A stretch of 64,000 bases of DNA from Candidatus Thorarchaeota archaeon. GTDB lineage: Archaea; Asgardarchaeota; Thorarchaeia; Thorarchaeales; Thorarchaeaceae. A program made the position numbers and the translations under genes. Where the stretch lies: contig CP070761.1 of the NCBI GenBank assembly GCA_020348985.1, forward strand, positions 1,305,747 through 1,369,746, written 5' to 3'. Positions 9,459-15,654 of this stretch are shown here, one piece after another. Numbering within the stretch: the first letter of the stretch is position 1; every line of letters begins with the position of its first letter. The notes beneath the pieces are model-generated. The model was not told the origin of the DNA. It did no database searches and saw only the letters and a program-made list of their open reading frames with translations.

Positions 9459-10226
9459 TCAGCTTCCAAAACGCCGAGACCTTCGTTCGTAGGAACGCAG
9501 GGCACGCCAAATGTCAATCCTTCTGACTGCAGGCCAATAAATCTGGGCAAAGTAGAGTTCAGAGTATGCAGACTGCCAGAGGAGAAAGCCCGAGAGGCGC
9601 TCTTCGCCAGATGTTCGAATGATGAGATCTGGATCAGGAGTACCATTAGTGTATAGATGTCGTTCGATTATCTGCTCATCTATCTGTTTAGGGTTTAATT
9701 GCCCGTTTGACACTTTTTGTCCTATCGCACGAACTGCATCTACAAGTTCGGTTCTTCCTGAATACCCGATTGCCACATTTAGGATGTGCTCTTCATAGCC
9801 TCCAGTCTCAGCCTCTGCAGCAGCAATTGCTTCTTGTACGTCCTTTGGGAGCAAGTCCACTCTTCCAATAGCCCTTATTCTCACTCTGTGTCGGTGGACG
9901 TCAGGATTGTCAACAACTTCAGAGAACTTCTCTTTGGCGATCCCCATGATTTCCCGCACTTCATCTTCGTTTCGCTGAAAGTTCTCAATGGAGAAAGCGT
10001 AGAGAGTGCACACCTTAACGCCGGCCTCCCAGAGTATACGGAGGACTTCCATGACCTTCTGTGCGCCCCTATGGTGCCCAAACCACGGCGAGTCAGCACC
10101 GTGCTCGCGAGCGTAACGTCGGTTCCCATCAAGTACAAGTCCAACATGTCGCGGGGCATTGTCTTTGTTCAGTTGCCTGAAGAGCCACCACTCGTATAAC
10201 CTGTACACAGGTCCAGCGAAGTTCAA
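9459..10226 (-). CDS. uppS: cis-prenyltransferase (UppS family)
   Basis: PRHVGLVLDGNRR, YAFSIENF, PDLIIRTSGEERLSGFLLWQ, RRFG. Confidence 0.95.
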   Translation of the reverse strand: MNFAGPVYRLYEWWLFRQLNKDNAPRHVGLVLDGNRRYAREHGADSPWFGHHRGAQKVMEVLRILWEAGVKVCTLYAFSIENFQRNEDEVREIMGIAKEKFSEVVDNPDVHRHRVRIRAIGRVDLLPKDVQEAIAAAEAETGGYEEHILNVAIGYSGRTELVDAVRAIGQKVSNGQLNPKQIDEQIIERHLYTNGTPDPDLIIRTSGEERLSGFLLWQSAYSELYFAQIYWPAVRRIDIWRALRSYERRSRRFGS

Positions 10227-10309
10227 TCTCTCACACGTTCTCCTATATCATCGTCTACTTGGTTTGACATTTAGGCTTGCTGAATGATGGACAACTGAAC
10301 GGTACAAGA

Positions 10310-10681
10310 CTAGATCAGTTTCGCTATCTTATCAGCAGCGCGTTTCATGTCCAAGAATATGAGTCCAAGCTTTGCATTGGCCGTTGTTGACACGGTGATA
10401 CAGGCATTCATTCCTGCCTGTACAACGATTAGCCAACCGTCGGCGCCCTTTACATTCACCTGCTCAAGGTTCCCTTTGCCGAGCTCTATAGCTGCCTTCT
10501 CTCCAAGAGTCAACATGGCCGCAGTCATCGCAGCGACCTTTGCTTCATCGACATCTGTCGGCAGGGCAGATACAATTGGAAGTCCCTCAACGCTGACTAT
10601 TGCAGCGGCCTCAATCTCAGGTATACTTCCCTGGAGTTCGTTCAGAACGCCTTCAAGTGTGTCTCCACGGGTCTCGGACAT
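10310..10681 (-). CDS. Roadblock/LC7 (MglB-like) protein
   Basis: AAAIVSVEGLPIVSALP, VAAMTAAML, LGLIFLDMKR. Confidence 0.9.
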   Translation of the reverse strand: MSETRGDTLEGVLNELQGSIPEIEAAAIVSVEGLPIVSALPTDVDEAKVAAMTAAMLTLGEKAAIELGKGNLEQVNVKGADGWLIVVQAGMNACITVSTTANAKLGLIFLDMKRAADKIAKLI

Positions 10682-10691
10682 CAGGCCTCAC

Positions 10692-11255
10692 CTACTTGTA
10701 CATTCTTTTTAGGATTACCTCTCGCGCTATGGCTTGAAAGGCTCGTTTTACTCCCACACCTTGAACAGCTATTGTCTCATAAATGGGAACATTGCCTCCA
10801 AGGCCGAGAAGATCTAGCATTTCATCGCGCGACATCCTGTTAGGCAAGTCACGCTTGTTGAGCATGACCACGATTGGAATCTCTCGCCCAAGGGCGTCAC
10901 CCAAAAAGAGCTTGAGCTCCTCAAAGCTTTCGGTATTCTCTTCTCGCTGATCTGGAGAGGAATCTGCAACGAAGAGAATCCCGTCAGTTCCCTGAAGCAC
11001 TACTTTCCTCTGGTGCCTGTGCCTCTTCTGACCAGCTACTGTGAAGACATCAAAGAGCACTCGACCCCCGGCGCTCATTGGAACATAGTCAAAGAACAGC
11101 GTACGGTTGGTTTCGTCCTCGATAGCCGTGAATTCTCCTTTCTGTAGTCCCTCAACCTTTCCGTACAGCCAGCGGAGTGCAGTGGTCTTGCCGCCTAATG
11201 AGGGTCCGTAGAAGACTAGCTTCAGATGGATTCGTCCCTTGTCATCTTTCCTCAA
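10692..11255 (-). CDS. MglA-family small GTPase
   Basis: GPSLGGKTT, RTLFFD, TVAGQ, NKRD, ETIA. Confidence 0.9.
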   Translation of the reverse strand: MRKDDKGRIHLKLVFYGPSLGGKTTALRWLYGKVEGLQKGEFTAIEDETNRTLFFDYVPMSAGGRVLFDVFTVAGQKRHRHQRKVVLQGTDGILFVADSSPDQREENTESFEELKLFLGDALGREIPIVVMLNKRDLPNRMSRDEMLDLLGLGGNVPIYETIAVQGVGVKRAFQAIAREVILKRMYK

Positions 11256-11384
11256 TACTGCACCTCATTGTGTCGTTGCTGTTCGAATTCATTACGGAAT
11301 GAGCCAAAACCTAGGCTCCACTCCCGGAGGCAAGCAGTTTAGGATTTCAGTCCAATAAAAGCCTTTGTGGAATGGGAAGTGTGT

Positions 11385-11612
11385 TCAGAGGTCTGAGACG
11401 GCTGCGGCGCAAGTTCTCTTAATGAGAAAGACTAGGTGGATTCTCAGAGAGAGCATCTTTTGGGCAGCGCCTCGAACAATCGGTCTCTTGCTGTTGATCC
11501 TCAGTTCCATTCTGTAGTGATCAAGTGATCTTTGTCTCGCAAGCATTGCCTCAGTGTCGTTGAAGCTCTCTGTATCGCCAGTGCTTGATCGCAAGTAGAC
11601 CACATTGGTCAT
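11385..11612 (-). CDS. Small hypothetical protein divergent from the micro-ORF cluster
   Basis: 75-aa ORF starting at the edge of an AT-rich intergenic region; contains DTEAMLARQRS. Confidence 0.4.
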   Translation of the reverse strand: MTNVVYLRSSTGDTESFNDTEAMLARQRSLDHYRMELRINSKRPIVRGAAQKMLSLRIHLVFLIKRTCAAAVSDL

Positions 11613-11660
11613 GAATCTTATGGAAGTGTTTGTAAATTACGTTAAGAGTTAAGCTTGAAT

Positions 11661-11681
11661 TAAAAACAAAAAATATTTAAG
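11661..11681 (+). promoter_or_regulatory. BRE/TATA promoter of the micro-ORF cluster
   Basis: TAAAAACAAAAAATATTTAAG, about 23 nt before a 9-bp hairpin at 11704. Confidence 0.6.
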
Positions 11682-11744
11682 ATGTCAGATGTAATACTAT
11701 TAGCATGCGAGGGAGGAAACTTCGCATGAAGAGAAGGTGTTTGC

Positions 11745-11852
11745 GTGACAAACTCGGAAGAAAAACTAACCTCCCGATGGAAGGAGATGAATAGGCGTCT
11801 CAAGACGAGTGAGAGCCTATACTTGGACTTCAAGGAAGGAGGTGAGCAGTAG
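11745..11852 (+). CDS. Micro-ORF A, 35 aa (MTNSEEKLTSRWKEMNRRLKTSESLYLDFKEGGEQ)
   Basis: GTG start after AAGGTG; stop overlaps the next start (TAGTG). Confidence 0.5.
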   Translation: MTNSEEKLTSRWKEMNRRLKTSESLYLDFKEGGEQ

Positions 11853-11962
11853 TGGCTCTAGCCAAGGACGCTAAGGAAGCGTCAAACGAGAAGATGAAGA
11901 AAGTGGCCAAGGTTCAGTCGACCGAGGCTCTAGCAAATGCATACCTGTACAAAAGAAGGTAG
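11852..11962 (+). CDS. Micro-ORF B, 36 aa (MALAKDAKEASNEKMKKVAKVQSTEALANAYLYKRR)
   Basis: Canonical SD GGAGGTGA at 11838-11845, GTG start, similar to ORF C. Confidence 0.7.
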   Translation: MALAKDAKEASNEKMKKVAKVQSTEALANAYLYKRR

Positions 11963-11980
11963 TAACGGAGGTGCATAAAA

Positions 11981-12076
11981 CTGGCAATTGCAAAGAACAA
12001 GAAGATAAAGCGACGCAATGCCAACCGTAGAGAAATCTCTACGAGGGCCATTGCTGACGCTTATTTCCGAAATTGA
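11981..12076 (+). CDS. Micro-ORF C, 31 aa (MAIAKNKKIKRRNANRREISTRAIADAYFRN), CTG start
   Basis: SD GGAGGTG at 11967-11973, 7 nt before CTG; shares MA[LI]AK and STxA[LI]AxAY with ORF B. Confidence 0.65.
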   Translation: MAIAKNKKIKRRNANRREISTRAIADAYFRN

Positions 12077-12092
12077 TCATAGGTAGATCAGG

Positions 12093-12221
12093 ATGGCTAA
12101 CATAGGCACAATGATTTCAGAGAACCTTGCCAATCAAAGGAGCCCTGAGCAAGGCAAGAATCATCAAGTTTTCTTCGACAAGTGTGCTCGTGTTGGCGAC
12201 AATATGAGCACACCCTTCTGA
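12093..12221 (+). CDS. Micro-ORF D, 42 aa (MANIGTMISENLANQRSPEQGKNHQVFFDKCARVGDNMSTPF)
   Basis: ATG 16 nt after the ORF C stop, weak AGGT SD, ISENLAN motif. Confidence 0.45.
   Translation: MANIGTMISENLANQRSPEQGKNHQVFFDKCARVGDNMSTPF
12182..12213 (+). terminator. 14-bp hairpin with GCGA (GNRA) tetraloop
   Basis: GTGTGCTCGTGTTG-GCGA-CAATATGAGCACAC; its two G.U pairs form only on the + strand. Confidence 0.55.
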
Positions 12222-12725
12222 CATCTACACAGAGCTTGTTTTCGTCAAGGTGTCAACCTTGATTCTCATTCTTGTCTTCGTAACGCCTGGTGCTAGAGGG
12301 GTCAACAACAGTTGACTTAATTCTGCTTGGGAGAGAAAAAGCATACGAGATTTGCTGGAAGACTTTTCCAAAGGCATAGAACCTAACTTCATTCTGTAGT
12401 TCATCTCGGGCCTATTCTTGGGAAGAACTGTAAGGACGAATATCTGGATCAGTGCTCCGAAGTGATTGGCAACAGGCATCCTCACACCCACTGTCTTGAT
12501 TGCAATCTCATACCTCATGGGCTACTAGAGTGAGAGAAAATGAAACTGGGACATCCAAGTACATGATTAGAACTGCTGCCTAGTTTAGCCACCTTCACAT
12601 TGACCAGAGTTATTATGATTAACATACCCGGATTCAAATCACTAATGGAATATACAAAATATCAAACGAATAATGAAAAACCTTAAGTTGCGCTTGAGCA
12701 GCGCACTTCAGAGTCAAGGGCAGAG

Positions 12726-12809
12726 ATGAAGACAAAGCCCAAATCTGGACCAAGAGGCCAAAGAATCACTGAAGACATTTACGTCTTACTCAACAGTTCT
12801 TTCCGATAG
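12726..12809 (+). CDS. Micro-ORF E, 27 aa (MKTKPKSGPRGQRITEDIYVLLNSSFR)
   Basis: Preceded by BRE/TATA-like GAAAAACCTTAAG (12675-12687); basic N-terminus plus ITEDIY. Confidence 0.35.
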   Translation: MKTKPKSGPRGQRITEDIYVLLNSSFR

Positions 12810-12959
12810 CTGTGTTCTTTACATCAAACATTAACAGCGGAGGAATTTCATGAATCCAAGGTACAATAATGCTGATTGTTTCTTAAGCCGCGATTCATGA
12901 GAAGGCCTGATTGCTTGTCCAGTCTCGTGAATTCATAGTTTCCGAGAGGCAGATTACAC

Positions 12960-14762
12960 ATGTTGGAGAAAGAAGTGAGAAACCAAAGAATAAGATTGTA
13001 CACGCTAGCAGCGTTGGTCGGAGTAATATCTGGTGTGACAGCCATTGCTTTCAGAGGACTCATTTTGGTTGTGAGCCTAGTTTTCGTATCTCTGCCTGTG
13101 TATCTTGGATCCTGGGGGTGGCTTATCGCGCCAGCTATTGGTGGACTTCTAGTGTCAATAATTGTGAAACGATTCGCACACGAGGCAAAGGGACATGGGG
13201 TTCCCGAACTCATCGATGCCTATGCACTTCGTGGAGGAATGATACGGGCCAGGGTTCCTCTTTTGAAGAGTCTAGCCTCAGCCATCTGCATAGGATCTGG
13301 TGGATCCTGTGGACGGGAGGGGCCCATAGCACAGATTGGTGGTGGTGCGGGCTCTGCTCTAGCCAGTTTCCTTGGACTTAATCGCAGGATGACAAAGACA
13401 CTTCTTGTATGCGGAACAGCGTCAGGGATTGCAGCAACCTTCAACGCCCCACTAGGAGGAGCCCTCTTTGGGATTGAAATTGTGGCTGGAGGAATCGCAG
13501 GGTTCCCTATAGTTCCTATAATCTTGTCCTCCGTGATCGCAACTGCACTGGCCGATGCCGTTCTTGGTACACAGCCATCATTTCAGGCGCCTTTGTTCTA
13601 TCTTGACAATTACATGGAGCTGGCATTCTATTTGACATTGGGCCTGATTCTTGGGATAATGAGTGTTCTTTGGTCACGGGGTTTCTACCAAATAGAAGAT
13701 ATATTGGAGAGAATGAAGGGCTCGAAACATGCGCTCACTGCTTTTGGTGGACTTCTGGTTGGCGCATTGGCACTGTTGGCTCTCAACATTGAGGCCGCAT
13801 TCGGATACACAGGGGTCATGAAACCAGGAGAACCATACTTCCCAGCTATCATGGGGGTAGGGTATGCCTTTGTGGATGCCACTTTGCTTGGACTGGTCGG
13901 AGTCAGTGTTCTTGTTATGTTTGGTCTACTGAAGTTCTTTGCCACATCAATCACTCTAGGCTCTGGAGGGTCTGGAGGCGTCTTCGCGCCGACACTCTTC
14001 ATAGGTGCGGCATTTGGAGGAGCGTTTGGTCTTGTCATAAACATTGCATTCCCAGAAATCGTTTCTCAGCCAATGGCTTATGCCTTGGTGGGTATGGCAG
14101 CTCTGTTTGCAGGTTCGGGCAGGGCTCCAATAACATGCATCGTGATGCTCATGGAAATGACAAACGACTACTCACTGATACTTCCACTCATGGCTGCAGT
14201 CTCTATGTCGTATCTTGTTTCTTCTTCAATTGAGGTTGAGAGTATCTACACTTTGAAACTGGCTCGTAGAGGCATCGACATCAAACGAAGTCAATACGTG
14301 GGGGCTTTGAGGGAAGTGAAGGCATCTCAAGTGATGACTGCTAGCCCCACAATTCTGAAACCTGACATGACAGTTCCGCAAGTTCTGAGAATAGTGGATG
14401 ATACCCATCATACCAAGTTTCCTGTAGTAGATTCTGACAACAAGATAGTTGGCACATTGATCACAGAGAACTTATTCGGTGGGCCTGAGGGAGGCTGCCC
14501 GGAGTGTCTAGTGCGGGACTTGATGAACGTAGAGGTTCTGATAGTCAGTTCTGAAGCTACAATGGACAGCGTTCTACACGGGATGCTAGAACGAGACGAA
14601 GGGCATGCTGTTGTGGTCGATCCTTTGAAACCAGAGAGGATGATAGGTTTTCTGACGAAGGCCGATGTTCTCAGTGCCTATGAGCTAGCCATTCTAAGGC
14701 TGAGGGAGGACGGAGAAGATGTTCATGAGATTGATCCACTGGACATGATTGCTTTCAGATAG
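12960..14762 (+). CDS. CLC chloride channel/H+-Cl- antiporter with CBS pair
   Basis: GHGVPE, GREGP, FNAPLGG, GGVFAP, SIYT, C-terminal CBS domains. Confidence 0.93.
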   Translation: MLEKEVRNQRIRLYTLAALVGVISGVTAIAFRGLILVVSLVFVSLPVYLGSWGWLIAPAIGGLLVSIIVKRFAHEAKGHGVPELIDAYALRGGMIRARVPLLKSLASAICIGSGGSCGREGPIAQIGGGAGSALASFLGLNRRMTKTLLVCGTASGIAATFNAPLGGALFGIEIVAGGIAGFPIVPIILSSVIATALADAVLGTQPSFQAPLFYLDNYMELAFYLTLGLILGIMSVLWSRGFYQIEDILERMKGSKHALTAFGGLLVGALALLALNIEAAFGYTGVMKPGEPYFPAIMGVGYAFVDATLLGLVGVSVLVMFGLLKFFATSITLGSGGSGGVFAPTLFIGAAFGGAFGLVINIAFPEIVSQPMAYALVGMAALFAGSGRAPITCIVMLMEMTNDYSLILPLMAAVSMSYLVSSSIEVESIYTLKLARRGIDIKRSQYVGALREVKASQVMTASPTILKPDMTVPQVLRIVDDTHHTKFPVVDSDNKIVGTLITENLFGGPEGGCPECLVRDLMNVEVLIVSSEATMDSVLHGMLERDEGHAVVVDPLKPERMIGFLTKADVLSAYELAILRLREDGEDVHEIDPLDMIAFR

Positions 14763-14880
14763 ATCTCCTGACGAAGACTAGGAAAGTGGGTTCTGGTGGG
14801 AGTCTGAATGATTACTGGTGTTGCATCTGCATCCATGACCAGATTCAATAGCGTATCCGAGTTAACCATAGTGAACCAGA

Positions 14881-15215
14881 TTGCAGGTATTGGCATATGT
14901 ACACACTGACAAAAAGGATTCTAGATGGAAACCCCGGAACTACAATCATGTAAAGGGACTGATTTCCAGCTATTTGGTCAATGTCGATTCTTCAGAGAGG
15001 ACCGGAGAGGTGTTTTTCTTCGATACGAGAGAGAACCTCGATGCCTTCAAAAACTCCAAACTGGGGAAGAGCATTGGAAAAGCTTTGGAGCTTGTTCAGC
15101 TCGAATTCGAGTGATTGGTATTTTTGCGAAACTGAGAACCCACTATGGGCTAGTTACTACGGATGGAAGTTTTAGTCTGTCTACACTCTTTCAAGCTCAG
15201 CCAGTGCAGACTTGA
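14881..15215 (+). pseudogene. Frameshifted YdhR/ABM-like monooxygenase remnant
   Basis: VKGLISSY..GEVFFFDTRENLDAFKNS in one frame, continuing as RIRVIGIFAKLR in another. Confidence 0.45.
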
Positions 15216-15654
15216 GATCTTCTTCGTCAAGCTCATCCTTGGTTGGCGCAGTTGGTTCTACTGCTAGGAATTTGTTGAGCTCATCAGCTAGCTGCACGCC
15301 CTGCTTCTTCATGACAAGTCGGATGAGACCGATGTTTACCTCAGGACCGGAAACGACACAGAGGACTCCCTTTCCACAGGCTGATGCGAAGATCTTACCT
15401 TCCGAAAACTCTGATGTGACAATCTCAAGTTCACCGATCTGAAGGTTCTTCCCCTGCTCTTCACTCGCACAGAAGACCGCGCTTGCGATTGCACCTATGG
15501 AATCCACGTCCACGGGGTAGTATGAGAGCTTGCTCACGTTGGCAATTGTAAGTCCGGTTTTGTCAACCAGTATGACCTTTGAGATTCCCTTGTCTTGACG
15601 GATTATCTCTGTTAGGATTCTGTCGAAAGCTTTTGGATCGCTCATTGATTCCAC
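15181..15654 (-). CDS. Roadblock/LC7 protein with acidic C-terminal helix
   Basis: ILVDKTGLTIA, IGAIASAVF, VNIGLIRL. Confidence 0.85.
   Translation of the reverse strand: MESMSDPKAFDRILTEIIRQDKGISKVILVDKTGLTIANVSKLSYYPVDVDSIGAIASAVFCASEEQGKNLQIGELEIVTSEFSEGKIFASACGKGVLCVVSGPEVNIGLIRLVMKKQGVQLADELNKFLAVEPTAPTKDELDEEDLKSALAELERV

Follow-up and report, generated by a model that had tools for sequence, protein, structure and literature searches.

Among described systems, the closest to an operon of several very small peptides are the leaderless multi-peptide bacteriocins, such as aureocin A70 (aurABCD) and enterocin L50A/B, in which tandem paralogous genes encode cationic peptides of 30-44 amino acids (aa). 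Other features of the locus treated here recall the arginine-rich-motif peptides (lambda/P22 N with boxB, HIV Tat with TAR), the Rgg/SHP pairs of Firmicutes, and bacterial attenuators and TnaC-type arrest peptides. The locus lies in a 64,000-nucleotide stretch of a Candidatus Thorarchaeota archaeon genome (assembly GCA_020348985.1, contig CP070761.1, positions 1,305,747 to 1,369,746), hereafter the window, whose + strand carries a promoter, a 5' hairpin, four tandem small open reading frames (ORFs; A to D) and a 3' hairpin (Table 1). Comparative sequence analysis shows a self-contained, protein-coding microprotein operon, two members of which (B and C) belong to a family restricted to Thorarchaeota; the best explanation as a whole, in which these would be helical, cationic peptides, we consider on balance probable. 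This B/C family is unannotated and undescribed, and is new to the public record.

Like the leaderless bacteriocins, B and C are tandem paralogous cationic peptides without leaders, and their family N-terminus recalls the MGAIAK of enterocin L50. Unlike the bacteriocin peptides, which are hydrophobic, Trp-rich and amphipathic and are accompanied by an ABC exporter and immunity genes, they are strongly hydrophilic and have no such genes adjacent; in the window the hydropathy is wrong for this class and the neighbours are MglA-like GTPase and CLC channel genes. Profile searches against Pfam and PDB gave no sequence similarity of the peptides to leaderless bacteriocins. The arginine-rich-motif peptides may serve as an analogy in being short, helical and highly basic (~15-30 residues) and in having a conserved small hairpin in the same transcript, which in the window has a GNRA loop; however, there is no homology, the loop is not GNRA elsewhere (GAAG or AGAAGC), and stand-alone C genes occur without this hairpin.

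The B/C family is defined by an N-terminal MA[LI][AV]K, a basic linker and a C-terminal [ST]T.A[ILM]..[AS]Y.[YF][RK]R in a total of 28-38 aa, and comes in a long type (B type, 34-38 aa) and a short type (C type, 28-31 aa). A profile built from the genome's own copies, B and C included, matched nine frames at E <= 5e-10 out of 93,571 stop-to-stop frames in the 3.16-Mb genome, the next best frame reaching E = 2.5; B scored E = 4.7e-10 and C E = 1.7e-11, and every family-invariant column is kept in both. The paralogy of B and C, proposed in a preliminary description made from the sequence of the window alone, is real. The same description had regarded A and D as looser paralogues of B and C, which is not supported: profile comparison of A and of D with B/C gave hhalign probabilities of 0.5% and 0.1%, respectively, and D falls in a separate family with another motif. 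Elsewhere in this genome the family is represented by two complete trios, 1829k and 2128k, both of which include a third gene, and by three stand-alone short genes (572k, 574k and 1706k). The 572k and 574k genes (G000:C1:572218-573992; L006, L012) are both of the short type with 29 aa, are ~80% identical, have near-identical promoters and lie on either side of one gene, which reads as an S41-type peptidase from its ORF translation alone and has one of the peptide genes ~20 nt upstream of it.

Conservation and copy number of B and C, which the preliminary description had proposed to follow in relatives, proved extensive within one lineage. Profile matches were found in 78 of the 86 genomes of the same family of the GTDB taxonomy, covering 16 of 16 genera with 1-12 copies per genome, and in none of 224 genomes from the other families of the phylum (29 families). 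Diverged members were found at a conserved locus in three genomes with no or only a weak profile score (G021, G004 and G001), and because such apparent absences are diverged copies, the family is probably close to universal within this lineage. Among 1.84 billion representative proteins 27 relatives were detected, all of 29-46 aa except for two, one a spurious repeat protein and the other a natural fusion of C and D (70 aa); the few entries in source databases are nameless or carry the label 'hypothetical protein'. It had been considered that the peptides might align as fragments of one decayed larger gene, which is not the case, as these two proteins are the only long relatives. The fusion (P0011, an ENA metagenome protein) joins a short-type to a D-type sequence with Gln replacing the stop codon, and is the sole fused form among the 27 relatives. 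The earlier failure to recognise a family is also borne out, as the peptides have no match in Pfam, NCBIfam or the PDB sequences at E <= 10, none in PHROGs or PADLOC and no usable match in the ESM Atlas, and full-text literature searches returned no paper on this family. In genome G016 a frame on the minus strand (L002:2394-2576), upstream of a second trio and ending ...TNDALYYAYLYRRL, has the C-terminal motif of the family but no MALAK N-terminus and may be another diverged member, and in the short-type genes of one genus (L044, L045, L046) Cys-Cys replaces the otherwise conserved Ser-Thr (KKICC[RE]AIAHAY).

A DNA search identified a stretch 71% identical to the window operon in a genome of another genus (G016, locus L002), where the order A'-B'-C'-D' is retained and a second B-C-D set lies immediately alongside, and the same four genes are present at L044, L045 and L046. 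Gene A, the extra first gene of this four-gene variant, occurs in 6 of the 86 genomes, from 3 genera; its orthologues (5 loci in 3 genera) have 8 invariant residues and the motif SRWK..LN[KR]RL.T.E.L..F..GG. The promoter is near-identical across the four-gene operons (GATAAATAT[AT]TAAGATGT...ACTATTA), and GATAAATAT[AT]TAAG can be aligned, near-identical, in the orthologous operons of three other genomes. The window has the same features, namely gene A upstream of B, the promoter AAATAT[AT]TAAGATGT...ACTATTA and a hairpin in the 5' untranslated region (UTR), which stands at an equal position in L002, L044 and L045; there its base is GCG...CGC and its inner sequence differs per genome.

Selection on the coding frames was assessed across these orthologues. 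The ratio of nonsynonymous to synonymous substitution rates (dN/dS) is 0.13-0.31 for B, 0.15-0.39 for C, 0.20-0.58 for A and 0.4-1.0 for D; the comparison with L002 alone, to whose orthologue B is 64% identical, gives 0.14 (B) and 0.20 (C). When the window-L002 pair was submitted to a six-frame control, B had its lowest ratio of nonsynonymous to synonymous differences (pN/pS, 0.30) in the annotated frame, and the frame of C tied with the antisense frame that shares its third codon positions. Shine-Dalgarno (SD) sites of the GGAG type precede B and C in the orthologous operons and AGGTAGA precedes D; the GGAG core before B is present in 5/5 of them, and GGAGGTG precedes the ATG or TTG start of C at identical spacing in L002, L044 and L045. 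Frames and SD sites are thus both conserved in relatives, with B and C under purifying selection (dN/dS 0.13-0.39), and the general reading of the preliminary description, that of an undescribed small-protein system, is supported; of its more specific suggestions, nucleic-acid or ribosome binding and modification in trans would be compatible with the evidence. Downstream of the four-gene operon, L045 (2117-2200) and L046 (761-982, minus strand) encode a small Lys/Ala-rich basic protein beginning ...KADKIKESQKAWKAGVAA, which has 73 aa in L046 and is cut off in L045; a frame with the motif ...ARDPENGDLG is likewise present in L044 and L046.

The D family consists of proteins of 30-42 aa with a variable, hydrophilic N-terminal part and the invariant ending [DE]VL.[LW][ED]A[TS], and the TGA stop of D sits in the 3' arm of a 12-bp hairpin with the consensus GTGCTCGCGTTG-GAAG-CAACGTGAGCAC, followed in the copies outside the window by a T-tract (T5-T7) within ~5-12 nt. 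In an alignment of 16 hairpin sequences, 90.5% of the pair cells are standard pairs, compared with 18-49% when the partner is slid, and three pairs have changed on both sides, a covariation score that 0 of 500 shuffles reached. One covarying position joins the third base of the Val codon to a base past the stop codon (GTG/CAC vs GTA/TAC), which only RNA-level selection can explain, and for some of the amino-acid changes (Ala to Gly, Leu to Trp, A to M) there are restoring second-site changes in the partner arm. The peptide end of D seems to be selected as well, since upper-stem pairs are broken by synonymous changes that leave Leu-Glu-Ala unchanged, and the hairpin loop is nearly invariant. 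With the hairpin as the only search criterion, an open frame of >=30 aa ending at the TGA was kept in 27 of 28 archaeal loci and then in ~60 of 60, whereas composition-matched shuffles of those loci stay open with a probability of 0.09-0.39; because the open frames far exceed the shuffles, D is a maintained ORF. A scan of one genome per species (185,579 species) with a degenerate hairpin pattern gave 60 archaeal loci, all assigned to Candidatus Thorarchaeota, Promethearchaeota or uncultured archaeon, and 6 bacterial loci that are seemingly chance matches inside long ORFs.

Across 37 non-redundant loci there is one recurrent neighbourhood (14 loci, several genera), in which the peptide operon is flanked by a divergent winged helix-turn-helix (wHTH) regulator and a convergent Zn-ribbon class I methyltransferase, the sole recurrent enzyme beside peptide loci. 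It often continues with a TrmB-like gene, and two profilin genes (best PDB match 7PBH, E = 4e-53) lie beyond the regulator where the sequence reaches. The order seen at L120:575-3766 of G001, L118 of G021, L061, L074 and L078 is profilin, profilin-like, wHTH regulator (opposite strand), peptide operon, methyltransferase and TrmB-like regulator. The wHTH regulator is ArsR/PadR-like by weak Pfam matches and is without a Pfam match to a peptide-binding repeat domain; its presence or absence does not track that of profile-detected peptides, the apparent absences being diverged copies. The syntenic copy at this conserved locus is the ancestral one. In G016 the four-gene operon stands there in tandem with a trio, which suggests that it arose at the conserved locus by duplication. 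In the genome studied here the 2128k trio occupies the conserved locus and the window copy has moved away; the window flanks contain no regulator near the operon and, by tblastn, no remnants of regulator or methyltransferase, and no peptide operons were seen beside two paralogous regulators of this genome (1074k, 1621k).

The 572k, 574k and 1829k loci share ~60 nt of promoter comprising the palindrome AGTCACAT.ATGTGACT, TGTGAC repeats and ATTATATA, and the only other occurrence of this promoter in the genome is upstream of a bactofilin gene (PF04519, E = 8e-12) that follows a wHTH gene. The bactofilin gene (L048:2095-3441; G000:C1:2787094-2788440) has TAGTCACATCTTGTGACCCT...TGTGGTTCCGC...TTTAAATA in its promoter and the wHTH (HTH_45) gene directly upstream. 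The window promoter is without the palindromic operator. It has instead the element AGATGTCAGATGTAATACTATTA, a candidate initiator or operator, which is >85% identical across the window, L002, L044 and L045 and is unlike the palindromic operator of the genome's other copies.

With regard to function, the canonical unit comprises a strong archaeal promoter, a long basic B (34-38 aa), a short very basic C (28-31 aa) and then D (30-42 aa), and since SD sites and short or overlapping junctions connect the genes, the peptides are probably made together. The C types carry a net charge of +7 to +9 in ~29 residues (isoelectric point 10.7-11.9), with a grand average of hydropathy (GRAVY) of -0.5 to -1.2 and a low helical hydrophobic moment; over all peptides GRAVY ranges from -0.4 to -1.2 with a low hydrophobic moment, the peptide sequences contain neither signal peptides nor hydrophobic segments, and the D types have a net charge of 0 to -4. 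An AlphaFold2 model of B' from L002 is a single continuous helix at a predicted local distance difference test score (pLDDT) of 72. The C-D fusion P0011, modelled without an alignment, was uninformative (pLDDT 59), and a three-chain complex prediction of B'+C'+D' scored 0.08 against a mark of 0.32, which counts neither for nor against binding. The conserved C-terminal segment can be read as a helix N-cap (S/T-T-x-[DE/K]) followed by small residues four apart (A...A/S-Y), an arrangement that would suit helix packing. B and C would then be abundant intracellular helical cationic microproteins whose basic linker binds a polyanion, RNA or DNA being the most likely, and whose conserved C-terminal helix (N-cap ST, then A..xA-Y..Y) provides a surface for packing or docking. 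D would be an accessory partner or modulator, and the two hairpins would stabilise and delimit the transcript so that the peptides are made in large amounts. We offer this whole model tentatively, as one possibility about which doubt outweighs conviction. It must be taken with caution, since nucleic-acid binding is suggested by composition alone, since the peptides match no known nucleic-acid-binding family (known ribosomal or nucleic-acid-binding small-protein families gave no significant profile match in Pfam, NCBIfam or PDB), and since there are copies that stand alone without B or D and the copy number ranges from 1 to 12. Because copy number varies and some copies stand alone, no single fixed complex is required. 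Readings of the C-terminus as a PIP-box, HbYX, MIM or LIR-type motif were rejected because the spacing does not fit.

The invariant ending of D and the divergent regulator can also be read in terms of peptide signalling or secretion, in which D would be a pro-peptide with a C-terminal octapeptide signal sensed by the wHTH protein in an Rgg/SHP-like manner, and/or B and C would be leaderless cationic archaeocins. This is unlikely in our judgement, even though it would account for a variable N-terminal part of D (dN/dS 0.4-1.0) next to eight invariant last residues and for the position of the regulator at the conserved locus, and even though leaderless tandem paralogous cationic peptides recall the aureocin A70 and enterocin L50 operons. 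The Rgg/SHP pairs have in common with the conserved locus a peptide gene divergent from a DNA-binding regulator and conservation in the C-terminal 8 residues; they differ in that the regulator here is a wHTH protein without a Pfam match to such a repeat domain for peptide binding, D is hydrophilic, and export and import genes are missing. No signal peptide was seen, and no exporter, importer or immunity gene was found beside the loci whose flanks were inspected; B and C, being hydrophilic and of low hydrophobic moment, do not resemble membrane-active bacteriocins, and much of the conservation of the D motif coincides with the RNA-level constraint of the hairpin. Moreover, the window copy has neither a nearby regulator nor the D motif.

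Several properties of the window copy weigh against an intact operon. The frame of C contains no ATG, GTG or TTG anywhere in the window, and its MA... N-terminus, which starts with ATG in L002 and L046 and with TTG in L044 and L045, has CTG at the homologous position. A and B start with GTG where their orthologues have ATG, and gene A is weakly supported, as its frame was not singled out in the six-frame control. D is the exception to its family: its frame is displaced by one base where it crosses the hairpin, continues for 14 nt past the ancestral TGA and ends ...DKCARVGDNMSTPF, so that the [DE]VL.LEAT ending is missing, and in the remnant of the ancestral frame 4 of the last 7 residues are off consensus. 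The T-tract is also weaker and farther from the hairpin than in the other copies. With CTG and GTG starts, a frame-shifted D and a weak T-tract, the window copy may be decaying and only partly expressed. The N-terminal half of the window D still resembles that of L002 (QR...QG.K..Q), and the proportion of nonsynonymous differences (pN) between the window D and other D genes is 0.63-0.70. The frameshift lies between ~12150 and 12183, with the TTTT run at 12169-12172 as candidate site, and may be a mutation or an assembly error. By contrast, the hairpin is kept and lengthened to 14 bp, with pair 8/21 changed from C-G to a compensatory U-A; in the window copy it is the RNA element and not the D peptide that is conserved.

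The same defects could mean that the window copy is a dying duplicate, that is, that the family is real and this operon no longer functions as a unit, with at most B still made. Its absence from the same-genus genomes G001 and G002, where it was not found, would fit as well. We nevertheless regard a dying duplicate as improbable, since the promoter, the 5' hairpin and the SD sites are all intact, B and C have lost none of their conserved residues, the 3' hairpin has been maintained by a compensatory change and the D frameshift could be an assembly error at the T-run. GTG is acceptable as the start of B, and the TTG starts of C in L044 and L045 indicate that weak starts are tolerated in this subfamily.

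A further alternative takes the overlap of D with its hairpin as a cis-acting device, in which D would be a leader or arrest-type ORF, the ribosome at its stop would melt the terminator hairpin and thereby tune 3'-end formation, decay of the B-C message or read-through, and the last residues would exert their effect within the ribosome tunnel. In its favour, practically every copy has the stop codon in the 3' arm of the covarying hairpin, with the T-tract immediately after; conservation in D is confined to its last 8 codons, as is typical of nascent-peptide regulators; and where the peptide has changed (A to M, L to W, A to G), second-site substitutions have restored the hairpin. Bacterial attenuators and TnaC-type arrest peptides similarly have the end of a short ORF overlapping a terminator-like hairpin, with conserved last codons, but in the operon described here the ORF is the last gene of the unit and not a leader, and no regulated downstream gene is evident. 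To our knowledge, no such leader/terminator-overlap mechanism has been described in archaea. There is no obvious read-through target, because the downstream genes are unconserved and often convergent, archaeal termination generally needs only a T-tract, the synonymous changes that break the upper stem and keep L-E-A imply selection on the peptide, and B and C would be left unexplained. We therefore give this device little credence.

The opposed charges of C (+7 to +9) and D (0 to -4) would be compatible with a toxin-antitoxin-like or selfish cassette, in which free B and C are harmful, the neutral-to-acidic D neutralises them, and the unit spreads and varies in copy number as an addictive element. 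Units are self-contained with their own promoter and terminator, they are present in 1-12 copies per genome at dispersed loci, and the window copy lies in a strain-specific insertion. However, stand-alone C genes exist without D in this genome (572k, 574k, 1706k) and in G001, D is broken in the window while B is intact, which such a pair should not tolerate, and neither PADLOC nor the Pfam toxin-antitoxin families gave a match. One locus that is syntenic across many genera is what would be expected of an old, vertically inherited gene set, and an addictive cassette is in our view quite improbable. Similarly remote is a role of B, C and D as Asgard-specific modulators of the cytoskeleton, for instance G-actin- or polymer-binding proteins comparable to thymosin/WH2 or regulators of bactofilin. 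It would build on the order of the conserved locus (profilin-profilin-regulator, peptides, methyltransferase) and on the operator and core promoter common only to three peptide loci and the bactofilin gene; the Pfam models for WH2 and thymosin found no match in the peptides.

Least credible of all is a role of the peptides as ligands or regulators of the roadblock and MglA-type GTPase proteins encoded next to them, as the preliminary description had suggested: physical proximity exists in this window only (MglA-like 10692-11255, roadblock 10310-10681), the syntenic MglA-roadblock block of G001 (75-76%) has no peptide operon, and all orthologous and paralogous copies have other neighbours.

Table 1. 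Features of the peptide operon and its neighbours (positions in the window).
Feature	Position	Strand	Description
Roadblock gene	10310-10681		Neighbour of the operon
MglA-like GTPase gene	10692-11255		Neighbour of the operon
Promoter	11662-11680	+	Purine/A-rich stretch like a B recognition element (BRE), then TATA-like box AAATATTTAA (11671-11680); read directly
Promoter-proximal element AGATGTCAGATGTAATACTATTA	11680-11702	+	Between TATA box and predicted transcript start
5' UTR stem-loop	11704-11728	+	9 bp, loop GAGGAAA; at or near predicted mRNA 5' end
Gene A	11745-11852	+	GTG start, 35 aa, net charge 0; extra first gene of the four-gene variant
SD site GGAGGTGA for B	11838-11845	+	Inside the last codons of A
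Gene B	11852-11962	+	GTG start, 36 aa, net charge +5; long-type family member ending QSTEALANAYLYKRR
SD site GGAGGTG for C	11967-11973	+	7 nt ahead of CTG
Gene C	11981-12076	+	31 codons, net charge +8; short-type family member ISTRAIADAYFRN; CTG at homologous start position
ORF D	12093-12221	+	ATG start, 42 aa, net charge 0; degenerate member of the third-gene family
Remnant of ancestral D frame	12127-12207	+	Ends ...SVLVLATI at TGA (12205-12207) in 3' arm of hairpin
3' stem-loop	12182-12213	+	14 bp, GCGA loop; core 12184-12211; -22.7 kcal/mol
Weak T-tract TTGTTTT	12236-12242	+	23 nt after the 3' hairpin; probable transcript end
CLC chloride-channel gene with CBS domains	12960-14762		Neighbour of the operon

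The setting of the window copy can be reconstructed by comparison with G001, a genome of the same genus. A UPP synthase-roadblock-MglA block (window 9464-11258) and a roadblock gene (15185-15645) are syntenic between the two at 75-76% identity, and the spacing between these blocks is ~1 kb in G001, where it holds a small-GTPase-like gene in two pieces, versus 3.9 kb in the window (11259-15184). Similarity of the window to the orthologous operons runs from ~11662 to ~12064, and the flanks differ at all orthologous loci. The segment thus interrupts a cluster of MglA and roadblock genes. Because G001 lacks it and similarity is confined to that stretch, the operon has been displaced, probably together with the CLC gene, into a strain-specific insertion, and its proximity to roadblock and MglA is therefore an accident of position. 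Neither the window flanks nor the recurrent neighbours elsewhere contain a transporter or a maturase (rSAM, YcaO, lanthipeptide synthetase and the like) of ribosomally synthesised and post-translationally modified peptides (RiPPs), in agreement with what had been noted for the adjacent genes, and the locus does not qualify as a RiPP precursor cluster. The operon is bordered by two minus-strand ORFs without a Pfam match or signs of conservation (11385-11612, 75 aa; 12225-12518, 97 aa), and the intergenic spaces around it, ~490 and ~740 nt, are long for this genome.

Within the operon, the elements already reported in the preliminary description (promoter, 5' hairpin, four tandem + strand ORFs, SD sites, TAGTG overlap and 3' GNRA hairpin) were all found at their places; the designation as basic micro-peptides applies to B (+5) and C (+8) and fails for A and D, both of net charge 0. 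In TAGTG, the GTG start of B overlaps the TAG stop of A by one base. The 5' stem-loop has a folding energy of -20.7 kcal/mol in context, the operon region is strongly purine-rich on the + strand (AT skew up to 0.41), and Rfam (E-value mode) gave no match on 10500-13500. Just 3' of the operon there are two further 8-bp palindromic hairpins, at 12244-12263 (TCAAGGT/ACCTTGA) and 12299-12318 (GTCAAC/GTTGAC), each followed by T-rich sequence, which could be extra terminators or protein-binding palindromes. A 10-nt inverted repeat that brackets the operon (AGATGTCAGA/TCTGACATCT; 11680-11689, 12217-12226) was dismissed as the end of a mobile element, ~1.5 such pairs being expected by chance in 1.8 kb. 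A single read-through protein B-TAG-TAA-C was likewise rejected: B and C are in one frame in the window and in L002, and their frames differ in L044 and L045.

Thorarchaeota belong to the archaea related to eukaryotes. All that is known of their genomes comes from metagenomes, and the programs that annotate these pass over genes of such a small size. Although the interest of the window copy itself is tempered by signs of decay, the family to which it belongs forms a promoter-to-terminator unit of two or three microproteins, present in up to a dozen copies per genome and kept by selection in every searched genus of the family. The B/C motif and the hairpin are specific enough for automatic annotation, with 0 false matches in 224 out-group genomes, and the placement of a stop codon within a covarying terminator hairpin offers a clean natural example of peptide and RNA constraints that overlap. 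If the binding of RNA or DNA were true, the peptides would represent a new class of abundant archaeal nucleic-acid ligands, and functional links to profilin and bactofilin, if real, would make them the first small, lineage-specific regulators of the cytoskeleton in an Asgard archaeon.

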